Origin: Escherichia phage BananaBelafonte
Reading direction: 5' to 3' (one strand)
Length of the DNA stretch: 51,510 bases
Sequence record: PP925845.1
Shown: in pieces, positions 33,500 to 34,204 of the stretch
How the letters are laid out: every line of letters begins with the position of its first letter
Position numbering within the stretch: the stretch's first letter is position 1
Notes under the pieces: generated by a model
What the model saw: only the letters and a program-made list of their open reading frames with translations
What the model was told of the DNA's origin: nothing
Databases searched by the model: none
Translations under genes and position numbers: made by a program

Positions 33500-34204
33500 T
33501 TAACCGCAGCAGCCAGTAGGCGGCGTTGGCGGGGTTGGCAGTTTGAAGTTAACCAACTGTGCAACCTGGTTGATTTTACAGTTGAGTTCTGAGGTCTGCT
33601 TCTCCTGAGACAGAGCGAAACGAGCCTCTTGCAGTTGCGCTTTCATATCGCAGATCAGGACAGCCTGAGAATCTGCAAACTGCTGGCGCATAAGATCGCG
33701 GGTTGCGTTGCCCTGGCGTTCGATATTCAGGTTGGTTTCACAGCAACATCTTTCTGCTGCAATCTGAGCCTGGAAGGAACGTTCCAGCGCGGCACGGTCA
33801 GCAGAGCCAATCGCCGCAACGGTCGCCGCAGTGCTTGCGGTAATCGCGGTATTCAGACCAGCAAAGCCCTGCACAGAGGCCAGGAGGTTTTGCGTGTTCT
33901 GGCTGGTGATGCCGTTAAAGGTTGATGCCGCCGAACGTTCAACGGTGAGGTTCGTTGAGTTCTGCCCCTGAATGGTTTGCAGCCCCAGGTTGTTAACGCT
34001 GGATTGAATCGTTCCGATACCGTCCAGGATTGCGTTTGCGCCTACTGCAACGCCAGCACCATCACCGCCGAAACCGTCACGACGACCGCCGAAGCCATTG
34101 CCGAACCAAGAACCAATCAGGCCACCTACAGCACCGCCAAGACCAGCAGATCCAGCTTCACCACCACCAAAACCACCAGTTGGTAACAGAGTCATATCAG
34201 ACAT
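33500..34204 (-). CDS. Gly-rich protein with glycine-zipper-like N-terminus and Cys clusters, function unknown
   Basis: N-terminus GGFGGGEAGSAGLGGAVGGLIGSWFGNGFGG, Q/N/S/T-rich middle, CCC motif, C-terminal PTPPTPPTGCCG; RBS GAGGTG; flanked by terminators on both sides. Confidence 0.5.
   Translation of the reverse strand: MSDMTLLPTGGFGGGEAGSAGLGGAVGGLIGSWFGNGFGGRRDGFGGDGAGVAVGANAILDGIGTIQSSVNNLGLQTIQGQNSTNLTVERSAASTFNGITSQNTQNLLASVQGFAGLNTAITASTAATVAAIGSADRAALERSFQAQIAAERCCCETNLNIERQGNATRDLMRQQFADSQAVLICDMKAQLQEARFALSQEKQTSELNCKINQVAQLVNFKLPTPPTPPTGCCG

Follow-up and report, generated by a model that had tools for sequence, protein, structure and literature searches.

A conserved four-gene phage cassette is headed by a protein that may form a membrane-anchored, cysteine-rich coiled-coil rod

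What kind of protein is encoded by the 234-residue gene that lies between the lateral tail fibre (LTF) gene and the single-stranded DNA-binding protein (SSB) gene of Escherichia phage BananaBelafonte? The stretch of DNA that we analyzed, called the window below, comprises 51,510 nucleotides (nt; record PP925845.1) and is an essentially complete 51.5 kb genome of a T1/TLS-like siphovirus (Drexlerviridae). The closest record is that of Klebsiella phage vB_KM5a1-KLB26, which is 94.5% identical across the gene in question, hereafter gene 1. On the minus strand, the order is a transcriptional regulator, the primase, the LTF, a terminator, gene 1 and three small genes, after which a bidirectional terminator faces the SSB gene. 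Gene 1 is the first gene of a four-gene cassette whose products have 234, 119, 165 and 83 amino acids. We favour, tentatively and at somewhat less than an even chance, the reading that its product is an abundant, membrane-anchored, Cys-locked coiled-coil rod, namely, an accessory and moron-like protein of the host membrane with its rod in the cytoplasm. The parts of gene 1 on which the argument turns are as follows.

33500..34204, minus strand: gene 1, an open reading frame of 234 amino acids with an ATG start (PHROG 9288)
34210..34215, minus strand: Shine-Dalgarno sequence GAGGTG of gene 1, recognized by reading the sequence
34178..34204, minus strand: acidic N-terminal peptide MSDMTLLPT (residues 1-9), conserved and free of Lys and Arg
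34040..34177, minus strand: Gly-rich region (residues 10-55) with the zipper G23-G27-G31-G35-G39, a putative membrane anchor by composition
33545..34039, minus strand: single continuous alpha-helix of 165 residues (residues 56-220), predicted by AlphaFold2
33740..33748, minus strand: invariant CCC (residues 153-155), on or beside the hydrophobic stripe of the helix
33578-33580, minus strand: codon of C209, which co-occurs with the Cys pair of the tail
33503..33544, minus strand: Pro/Thr-rich tail KLPTPPTPPTGCCG (residues 221-234) with the Cys pair C232/C233, examined by dN/dS (nonsynonymous over synonymous substitution rate) and co-occurrence

The original prediction, made from the letters of the window, described a 234-residue protein with a glycine-zipper N-terminus, a centre rich in Q, N, S and T, a CCC motif and a C-terminal tail, and in these respects it was accurate. 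The open reading frame encodes exactly such a protein, the zipper is perfect (G23xxxG27xxxG31xxxG35xxxG39) within a segment that is 50% Gly (residues 10-51), and Q, N, S and T account for 45% of residues 56-135. Of the seven cysteines, three form CCC153-155, two stand singly (C185 and C209) and two, C232/C233, lie in the terminal KLPTPPTPPTGCCG. The PHROG 9288 profile matches residues 1-234 of 234 (E 2.5e-116), and gene 1 has 202 homologous clusters, all of approximately 230 amino acids. Compared with relatives at synonymous saturation, dN/dS is 0.02-0.19 in every region, so that the Gly-rich N-terminus, the helix and the tail are all under strong purifying selection, even though the N-terminus looks like low-complexity sequence. 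Because of the full-length profile match, the 202 clusters, the conservation of CCC and C185 and the low dN/dS, gene 1 is not a chance low-complexity reading frame.

The family is also widespread. It occurs in 217 INPHARED genomes and in 121 clusters at 50% identity, from siphoviruses, one myovirus and one crAss-like phage, with hosts from three phyla. A profile search for distant relatives yielded 121 clusters, most of them full-length at 190-290 amino acids, and these relatives match PHROG 16490 as well as PHROG 9288; members of PHROG 16490 occur in crAss-like, Bacteroides and Clostridium phages. Four hallmarks of the superfamily, QGFAGLNT, CCCxTxxxIxxEGxATRxLI, LCDxK and SQxAQT, are shared by the window protein and the consensus sequences of three alignments, and QGFAGLNT appears in one to three copies across the superfamily, with two or three in the distant relatives. 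Four records labelled as Campylobacter phages A15b, A123, A16a and A118 (MG065637, MG065669, MG065636 and MG065675) carry the cassette at ~87% (gene 1) and ~80% (gene 3) amino-acid identity, and these 'Campylobacter jejuni' records look like mislabelled or contaminating coliphages.

No match in Pfam, NCBIfam, PADLOC, PDB sequences (searched with the single sequence and with a profile) or Foldseek gave a function for gene 1, and the Pfam search at E <= 1 returned only two unrelated weak matches. The BASEL, 9g, vB_YenS_P400 and KanT1 papers contain no virion proteome and no functional data on any member of the family. By sequence, profile or fold, the product is related to no characterized family. 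This result, together with the bona fide transmembrane (TM) segments of distant homologues described below, fits the earlier suggestion of a membrane-active protein or something new.

According to AlphaFold2, the bulk of the protein is a rod. The run with a 68-sequence alignment superseded an initial run with close homologues only (mean predicted local distance difference test score, pLDDT, 54) and gave a pLDDT of 74, with one unbroken helix at residues 56-220 and disordered ends at residues 1-55 and 221-234; all of these predictions are of the monomer. The means of 10-residue blocks exceed 90 over residues 121-210 and pLDDT falls below 50 over the Gly-rich N-terminal region. At 0.148 nm per residue, the 165 residues of the helix span ~24.5 nm. 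A Foldseek comparison of the confident model with BFVD and PDB produced zero matches, as expected for a lone helix. The helix, within which the QGFAGLNT motif lies, is rich in Q, N, S, T and A and not in E and K; therefore, it would not be a stable single alpha-helix, and we infer that it must be stabilized by oligomerization. A hydrophobic stripe with 3/4 spacing, recurring every ~22 residues, runs along residues 56-220, and the protein thus combines the long unbroken helix and the periodic hydrophobic stripe that characterize a parallel coiled coil.

The same prediction disposes of a label attached to the family elsewhere. In BASEL phage records, the gene 1 product is called a 'putative sugar-binding protein', which would make it a lectin, and a PDB-sequence profile search does give the ricin B chain at residues 45-142 (E 0.26), the match from which the label probably stems. 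However, this match is non-significant, the matched region is confidently predicted as one alpha-helix and not as a beta-trefoil, and the BASEL paper offers no supporting text for gene 1. We regard a sugar-binding lectin as effectively refuted by the helical prediction.

The cysteines are placed where a bundle of such helices could use them. CCC is found in 121 of the 121 close homologues and is nearly invariant in the 68-sequence superfamily alignment, and C185 is found in 119 of the 121. C153, C154 and C185 lie on the hydrophobic stripe, and C209 flanks it, so that in a parallel and in-register bundle the cysteines would form interchain layers. Beyond the helix, the tail PTPPTPPTGCC has a dN of ~0, while dS is 1.06 against JenK1 and 1.36 against Sasha. 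Among the close homologues, C209 accompanies the tail CC in 88 sequences, both are missing from 33, and not a single sequence has just one of them; on a tree constructed from residues 1-200, the two change state jointly at least five times. This joint pattern could reflect functional coupling or the exchange of the last ~30 codons as a block. Across the superfamily, the C-terminal tails are of three kinds: PTPPTPPTGCC, Thr/Ser/Ala-rich, and Cys-Gly-rich such as GCGCGCGFGC.

The putative anchor precedes the rod. M1, M4, L6 and P8 of the N-terminal peptide are invariant in the alignment of close homologues, and distant relatives begin with a similar peptide, M-[DE]-x-[ML]-x-L-[LIV]-[PD]. The region that follows contains the glycine-zipper motif GxxxGxxxG (Kim et al., 2005), with i+4 spacing from G23 to G39, and G27 and G31 are nearly invariant across the 68-sequence alignment. 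The Pfam Gly-zipper profiles do not match gene 1 at E <= 1, and SlyB appears only at E 7.8 in the PDB search. In the relatives of PHROG 16490, W-flanked hydrophobic segments such as WWIIILFLFAF and SLIFFLFFLLAW replace the zipper and the Gly-rich flanks are retained; the 19-residue Kyte-Doolittle means of the equivalent segment are 1.6-2.1, the usual cut-off for a TM segment being ~1.6. Further membrane-type segments at the zipper position of distant relatives are GGDASWWIIILFLFAFCGWGG and GGGGSLIFFLFFLLAWGGNG. The N-flank of the window protein, MSDMTLLPTGGFGGGE, contains no K or R and two acidic residues, and across the superfamily this flank has 0-1 K/R versus 1-5 D/E. The first charged residues on the C-terminal side of the zipper segment are Arg. 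Because the N-flank is acidic and lacks Lys and Arg and because Arg follows the segment, an N-out/C-in topology is weakly favoured by the charge-difference rule.

Flank charges bear directly on an alternative with the opposite topology. The product may be a periplasm- or wall-spanning tether of the i-spanin, TolA or TonB type, N-in/C-out, in which an inner-membrane anchor would carry the 24.5 nm rod across the periplasm, DsbA would make interchain disulfides, and the Pro/Thr-Cys tail would touch the outer membrane or peptidoglycan; the effects might include altered lysis, exclusion or envelope integrity. The periplasm of E. coli has a width close to ~24.5 nm. The odd number of cysteines (seven), on or near the core of the rod, recalls disulfide-linked Rz dimers, the Pro-rich tail recalls Rz1 and TonB, and LCDAKAKI of the gene 1 family bears a weak local resemblance to LADAKAEND of lambda Rz. 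However, an N-flank that is acidic and without Lys or Arg, with Arg on the C-terminal side, is the reverse of a signal-anchor, and hhalign assigned a probability of 2.3% to the relationship with lambda Rz (a sequence entered by hand) and of 0.4% to that with the phage's own spanin. Moreover, an endolysin and an Rz-like spanin are already encoded by the phage at 44673-45556, and relatives of gene 1 occur in phages of strict anaerobes and of Gram-positives, where there is no periplasm and extracytoplasmic disulfides are uncommon. We therefore consider a tether of this kind improbable.

A second alternative makes use of the same N-terminus in the virion. The protein may be a virion-borne membrane-penetration or ejection protein, with the Gly-rich N-terminus serving as a fusion peptide or as a TM segment like that of phiX174 H, and with the Q/N-rich helices forming a tube or bundle that would aid the delivery of the genome across the envelope. 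This architecture parallels phiX174 H and class I fusion proteins; the Q/N/S/T content of residues 56-135, weak compositional matches to tape-measure PHROGs and the location within head or tail modules also speak for it. Nevertheless, there is no homology to H (hhalign probability 0.1%, with the H sequence entered by hand), close relatives with the same hosts lack gene 1 or can do without it, in siphoviruses this step already falls to the tape-measure protein, and the cassette partners, a MazG-like protein among them, are unsuited to it. This possibility is very unlikely.

The three genes downstream are more than bystanders. The original prediction placed three 'other small unknown genes' beside gene 1; they are linked partners of gene 1 in a cassette. 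The elements of the cassette downstream of gene 1 are as follows.

33090..33449, minus strand: gene 2, 119 amino acids, PHROG 9157, with a His/Asp-rich N-terminal tract and a MazG-like, all-alpha C-terminal domain (weak but consistent similarity)
32579..33076, minus strand: gene 3, 165 amino acids, PHROG 8329, conserved and beta-rich
32341..32592, minus strand: gene 4, 83 amino acids, PHROG 7239, helical by eye, overlapping gene 3 by 14 nt
32318..32339, no strand assigned: bidirectional terminator at the end of both the cassette and the convergent SSB gene (terminator scan of both strands)

This set of four genes, with its order preserved, is found in Tlsvirus and other Drexlerviridae, Nonagvirus (JenK1), Seuratvirus, Eiauvirus, Sashavirus, Nonanavirus and a 50 kb Yersinia myovirus. 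Across these lineages, the products have approximately 230, 120, 170 and 85 amino acids, corresponding to PHROGs 9288, 9157, 8329 and 7239. Gene 3 is found in 139 phage records, and its counts per genus equal those of gene 1 except for ~75 extra Salmonella records of gene 1; those inspected are T5-like phages with gene 1 remnants. In IMG/VR contigs with gene 1 at ~30-45% identity, hidden Markov models (HMMs) of gene 2 and/or gene 3 match the open reading frame directly downstream in 22 of 80 loci; many of the 80 loci fetched are near-duplicates, and the 58 without a match include the gut-phage group of the L034/L036 type. The crAss-like and Bacteroides homologues have downstream genes of similar size, with an hhalign probability below 1% against genes 2-4, and therefore we claim conservation of the cassette only where HMM matches exist.

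The His-rich tract of gene 2 is conserved, and its C-terminal domain shows a weak but consistent similarity to MazG: it matches Pfam PRA-PH at E 0.023, short of the family cut-off, and PDB 2p06 at E 0.0067, a value partly inflated by the His tag of 2p06. In the acidic motif ExExxE...ELxD, E80, E82, E85 and E101 are invariant, and position 104 is Asp in seven of eight sequences and Glu in one. Searches of Pfam, NCBIfam and PDB with gene 3 returned only non-significant similarity to RidA/YjgF, and neither gene 3 nor gene 4 has an informative database match.

In phages of the Firmicutes and Bacteroides types (L036 and other gut loci among L034-L093, and L032, L011, L010 and L012), a small beta-rich protein follows the gene 1 homologue. 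The downstream proteins of L032 and of Clostridium phage CPD1 have Cys-rich N-termini (MTCNRRCNCCN and MSECVRNCKLC). The gene 1 homologues of CPD1, crAss-like phage cr116_1 and Bacteroides phage C3_41T2LP end in Cys-rich tails, which may pair in a complementary manner with the downstream protein. A BclA/C1q-like partner was suspected in the Firmicutes-type gut phages and dropped when PDB and Pfam searches proved empty.

Signals that may control expression flank gene 1 on both sides.

34327..34353, minus strand: intrinsic terminator AGGCAGGGCttcgGCTCTGCCTTTTTT closing the primase-LTF transcription unit (terminator scan; RNAfold -16.3 kcal/mol)
34283..34312, minus strand: weak candidate sigma-70 promoter TTGCTT-N18-ATTAAT, hand-picked
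34233..34249, minus strand: palindrome or 5′ untranslated region (5′-UTR) stem-loop TGTAGCaagggGCTACA, ending 28 nt before the ATG
33464..33487, minus strand: GC hairpin and U-run between genes 1 and 2, a candidate attenuator or 3′ stabilizer (-13.7 kcal/mol)

The terminators predicted on both sides of gene 1 are thus both found, at 34327-34353 and 33464-33487, whereas the predicted promoter-like region is not confirmed: a promoter scan found no sigma-70 consensus for gene 1 and did not call the hand-picked candidate, which is also not among the phage's ~20 promoters of the form AATAGCAC-N5-TTGCTAAAAC. The description of gene 1 as monocistronic is misleading as well. Only 50 nt separate its stop from the start of gene 2, and these are filled by the hairpin, the U-run and the ribosome-binding site of gene 2; therefore, genes 2-4 must be read through from the promoter of gene 1, in an operon with an internal attenuator or stabilizer hairpin.

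Both the palindrome and the hairpin are conserved. In all eight lineages, the motif TGTA(A/G)(C/T)-N4-6-(G/A)(T/C)TACA ends 28-39 nt upstream of the gene 1 start, and changes in its arms stay complementary (GTAAC/GTTAC, GTAGC/GCTAC, GTAGTC/GACTAC). It occurs once in the window, versus 0.06 occurrences expected, and is distinct from the repeated promoter/operator motif of the phage. It may be either a 5′-UTR stem-loop or a DNA operator. Downstream, the hairpin AAGCGCC-loop-GGCGCTT lies between genes 1 and 2 in every lineage of the enterobacterial type (eight lineages), and most of the distant IMG/VR loci have a strong but unrelated hairpin at the same place after gene 1. The automatic terminator scan missed the hairpin at 33464-33487, probably because the extension of its stem consumes part of the U-run. 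By attenuation or 3′ stabilization, this hairpin should favour the expression of gene 1 over that of genes 2-4.

Two observations on the regulatory signals of the window stand apart from gene 1. The hairpin at 33464-33486 on the minus strand is nearly identical in sequence (AAGCGCCTACGGGCGCTTTT) to one at 19320-19342 on the plus strand, just upstream of the tape-measure gene, and the two form the arms of an inverted repeat with 96% complementarity. In addition, there are ~20 copies of AATAGCAC-N5-TTGCTAAAAC followed by ~17 nt (often with a small GC hairpin) and TATAGT or CATAAT, upstream of early and replication genes. They lie on the plus strand at 1218, 1535, 2638, 3179, 3829, 4825, 6143, 10315, 31088, 38459, 40947, 41276, 42431 and 42757 and on the minus strand at 18652, 29577, 37995, 47721, 49834, 50323 and 51119. 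A TAGCA-N6-TGCTA palindrome overlaps the -35 element of these repeated promoters, a hint of a common operator at which a regulator of the phage would act.

The surroundings of the cassette vary among phages. In the window, it follows the LTF gene (34361-36997, minus strand), which encodes 878 amino acids ending in a Peptidase_S74 intramolecular chaperone; the shaft of this LTF contains seven tandem 63-nt repeats at 36090-36530, encoding the 21-residue unit SETNSAANKDAAAASAAAAKT. The cassette likewise follows lateral fibre or tail genes in other Drexlerviridae, Queuovirinae (Nonagvirus and Seuratvirus), Eiauvirus and IMG/VR loci L033 and L024. In Sashavirus, it lies between TerL and the portal gene. 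The gene 1 homologue lies between the small terminase and major capsid genes in cr116_1, just upstream of the genes for the scaffold and the major head protein in loci L036 and L032, and after the head-tail adaptor in L031. In the Yersinia myovirus, C3_41T2LP and CPD1, the location is among early or replication genes. Furthermore, the primase-LTF-terminator-SSB junction of phage T1 is identical but empty, and T5-like Epseptimavirus phages have only a copy of gene 1 riddled with stop codons downstream of the fibre gene. Because of these varied positions, the absence from T1, the decay in T5-like phages and the deletion chimeras described next, we consider the cassette to be mobile, self-contained and dispensable; its distribution across genomes identifies it as a moron-like accessory operon.

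Several rearranged copies were encountered. In the T5-like Salmonella phage vaffelhjerte (locus L005), a decayed gene 1 with several in-frame stops lies at 4803-5520, directly 3′ of the LTF gene. The ~75 Salmonella records with gene 1 and without gene 3 are probably similar remnants, a pattern which suggests that fibre modules are exchanged together with their downstream flank. In Escherichia phage SHIN8 (locus L006), a 202-residue 'tail fiber protein' at 4605-5213 is an in-frame chimera of ~135 N-terminal LTF residues and the last ~70 residues of the gene 1 family, followed by cassette genes 2-4. P0121 (three member sequences and 11 contigs, the longest of 61 kb) is a natural fusion of gene 1 with gene 3, joined at NLNIER|PVNVMY, that retains the N-terminal two thirds of gene 1 and the second half of gene 3, with gene 2 missing altogether.

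This genomic context is where the claim of a fibre accessory or adhesin-like protein has to be weighed. The product may be a virion fibre or whisker, that is, a coiled-coil stalk (probably trimeric) on the particle that would either help the LTF to attach, in the manner of fibritin, or serve as a fibre of the head or neck. In that case, the factors for its tip or assembly would come from genes 2-4, and the stalk would be cross-linked through its cysteines following release. The cassette is directly 3′ of LTF or tail genes in Drexlerviridae, Nonagvirus, Seuratvirus, Eiauvirus, L033 and L024 and inside head modules in Sashavirus, cr116_1, L036, L032 and L031. A helix of 165 residues is fibre-like, and a hairpin-bracketed and apparently highly expressed gene 1 resembles a gene for a structural subunit. 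In addition, there are the in-frame fusion of the LTF N-terminus to the gene 1 C-terminus in SHIN8 and the untested labels given to the family by others ('lateral tail fiber chaperone', 'outer capsid protein/viral fiber' and 'spike protein/glycoprotein'). However, the strongly hydrophobic TM-type segment of the distant homologues is unusual for an external fibre, and the cassette accompanies differing systems of fibre assembly, namely, the S74 intramolecular chaperone in the window and separate Tfa-type chaperones in JenK1. It is also present far from fibre genes in a myovirus, a crAss-like phage and Clostridium phages, and no adjacent fibre gene was found in Sashavirus, Nonanavirus, the Yersinia myovirus, cr116_1 or CPD1. 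The LTF locus of T1 lacks the cassette, and T5-like phages let it decay. Searches of Pfam and PHROG at E <= 1 found no homology to the fibritin, Tfa or gp38 families, a negative answer to the question of whether gene 1 is related to known fibre tip or assembly proteins; what weakens the fibre reading is therefore context and not homology. Gene 1 travels with three genes and not with a type of fibre, and an accessory of the fibre is unsupported as the primary reading. We believe that insertion at the boundaries between modules and co-transfer with exchanged fibre modules account for the frequent adjacency to fibre genes better than a fibre-specific function does, and although the virion fibre or whisker is the main rival of the membrane-anchored rod, it is unlikely.

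We return to the membrane-anchored rod. The N-terminal segment would anchor the product in the host cytoplasmic membrane, probably N-out/C-in, and parallel, in-register helices would make up an oligomeric coiled-coil rod. The CCC layer and C185 would face their counterparts across the chains and lock the bundle through metal-thiolate or disulfide layers. The distal tail PTPPTPPTGCC, together with C209, would offer a site for docking or metal binding at a distance of ~25 nm from the anchor. Because gene 2 has a His-rich tract, the products of genes 2-4 may be the most plausible partners of the tail, and the same tract makes metal-thiolate chemistry plausible. The 5′ stem-loop and the 3′ hairpin that bracket the gene 1 message would place gene 1 in excess over genes 2-4, as would be expected for a major structural subunit that is followed by minor or assembly factors. 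A cytoplasmic rod is favoured because of the flank charges, the richness in Cys even in phages of strict anaerobes and the His-rich tract of gene 2. Because the cassette has an apparent control region and terminators of its own, varies in position and is lost in some lineages, an accessory role associated with the envelope would be expected, either protection or exclusion at the envelope of the infected cell or modulation late in infection; a core virion or replication function would not be expected.

Several points weigh against this reading. The best 19-residue Kyte-Doolittle mean in the zipper segment of the window protein is only 1.18, and a hand calculation on the Hessa scale gives ~+6 kcal/mol for the N-terminal segment; in the enterobacterial clade, this segment is too Gly-rich for an autonomous TM helix. 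The case for anchoring the window protein draws on positional homology to the distant relatives, and that for its putative topology draws on a weak charge bias. The heptad or hendecad signal of the helix is moderate and not that of a textbook coiled coil, and we infer the oligomeric state and the chemistry of the Cys layers from predictions of the monomer. C209 and the tail CC are ~70 nt apart, and thus their joint gain and loss could reflect a 3′ block exchange. Finally, the cassette lies mostly in or beside modules for virion morphogenesis and is co-oriented with them, a location that is equally compatible with a virion component.

A broader proposal may also be made, although we consider it rather unlikely. 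The proteins of PHROGs 9288 and 16490 would be the major subunit of a new phage-built apparatus, an abundant, Cys- or metal-locked 25 nm coiled-coil rod that is anchored in or inserts into a membrane and has a few dedicated partners. If this is true, the apparatus would extend from phages of Enterobacteria to crAss-like, Bacteroides and Clostridium phages, and it might act at the envelope in a way unlike any known phage system, for example, as a fusion-peptide-plus-coiled-coil device in tailed phages.

The gene 1 family is a large, tightly constrained and cross-phylum piece of phage 'dark matter', and the finding bears on no long-standing question. The cassette adjoins host-range genes that are routinely swapped in phage engineering (the BASEL phages and Klebsiella and Salmonella therapy candidates), and for engineers the four-gene unit is to be treated as a separable accessory operon and not as a part of the fibre. 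If the rod is indeed envelope-anchored or a virion whisker, it would represent a new class of phage accessory apparatus. The CCC layer, invariant and set within a coiled coil, would make for unusual chemistry, as would the His-rich partner and the Cys-Cys tail.

In architecture, the gene 1 product resembles i-spanins, phi29 p16.7, T4 fibritin and phiX174 H, and it fails membership in each family tested. Like the i-spanin Rz, it would combine a single putative N-terminal membrane segment, a long coiled coil with conserved Cys, a Pro-rich partner or tail and a length similar to that of the periplasm. In contrast to Rz, its flank charges predict the opposite topology, it shows no sequence relationship, its relatives occur in phages of Gram-positives, and it lies outside the lysis cassette, which is complete elsewhere, with the LTF gene and genes 2-4 as its neighbours. 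phiX174 H, from a phage without a tail, is an essential protein of the virion; its helix works only as a parallel oligomer, and it has no cysteine motifs. In both proteins, a hydrophobic N-terminus with a glycine zipper precedes a long helix rich in Q and N, whereas gene 1 has no detectable homology to H, is dispensable in tailed phages and encodes cysteine motifs.

T4 fibritin (Wac) is a non-essential, trimeric coiled-coil whisker that speeds the attachment of the long tail fibres. The proposed rod would likewise be a long parallel coiled coil, non-essential and linked to long or lateral tail fibres in several lineages, but it has no homology to fibritin and no foldon, its relatives have a hydrophobic TM-type N-terminus, and it often lies away from fibre genes. 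The p16.7 protein of phi29 is a membrane-anchored coiled-coil organizer of phage DNA replication (~130 amino acids) with a DNA-binding domain. Compared by description, and with no homology expected, p16.7 would share with the gene 1 product an N-terminal TM segment, a coiled coil and a cytoplasmic functional end, and some cassettes lie among replication or recombination genes; the gene 1 product differs in its 165-residue rod, its Cys/Pro tail and the lack of a recognizable DNA-binding domain.

In genetic behaviour, the closest kind is that of the membrane-protein morons, such as HK97 gp15 and the exclusion genes of the Cor/Llp type found by receptor-binding genes. Pfam, PHROG and PADLOC searches found no homology of gene 1 to these genes, and no exclusion phenotype is known for its family. 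The cassette also differs from them in having four genes and not one, in residing in virulent phages and in encoding a 25 nm rod and not a small lipoprotein or bitopic protein. It nevertheless behaves as morons do: it has its own terminators and an apparent control region of its own, it is inserted between core operons, often by tail or fibre genes, it is variably present, and the product of its first gene carries a putative N-terminal segment of the membrane type, as these moron products do.

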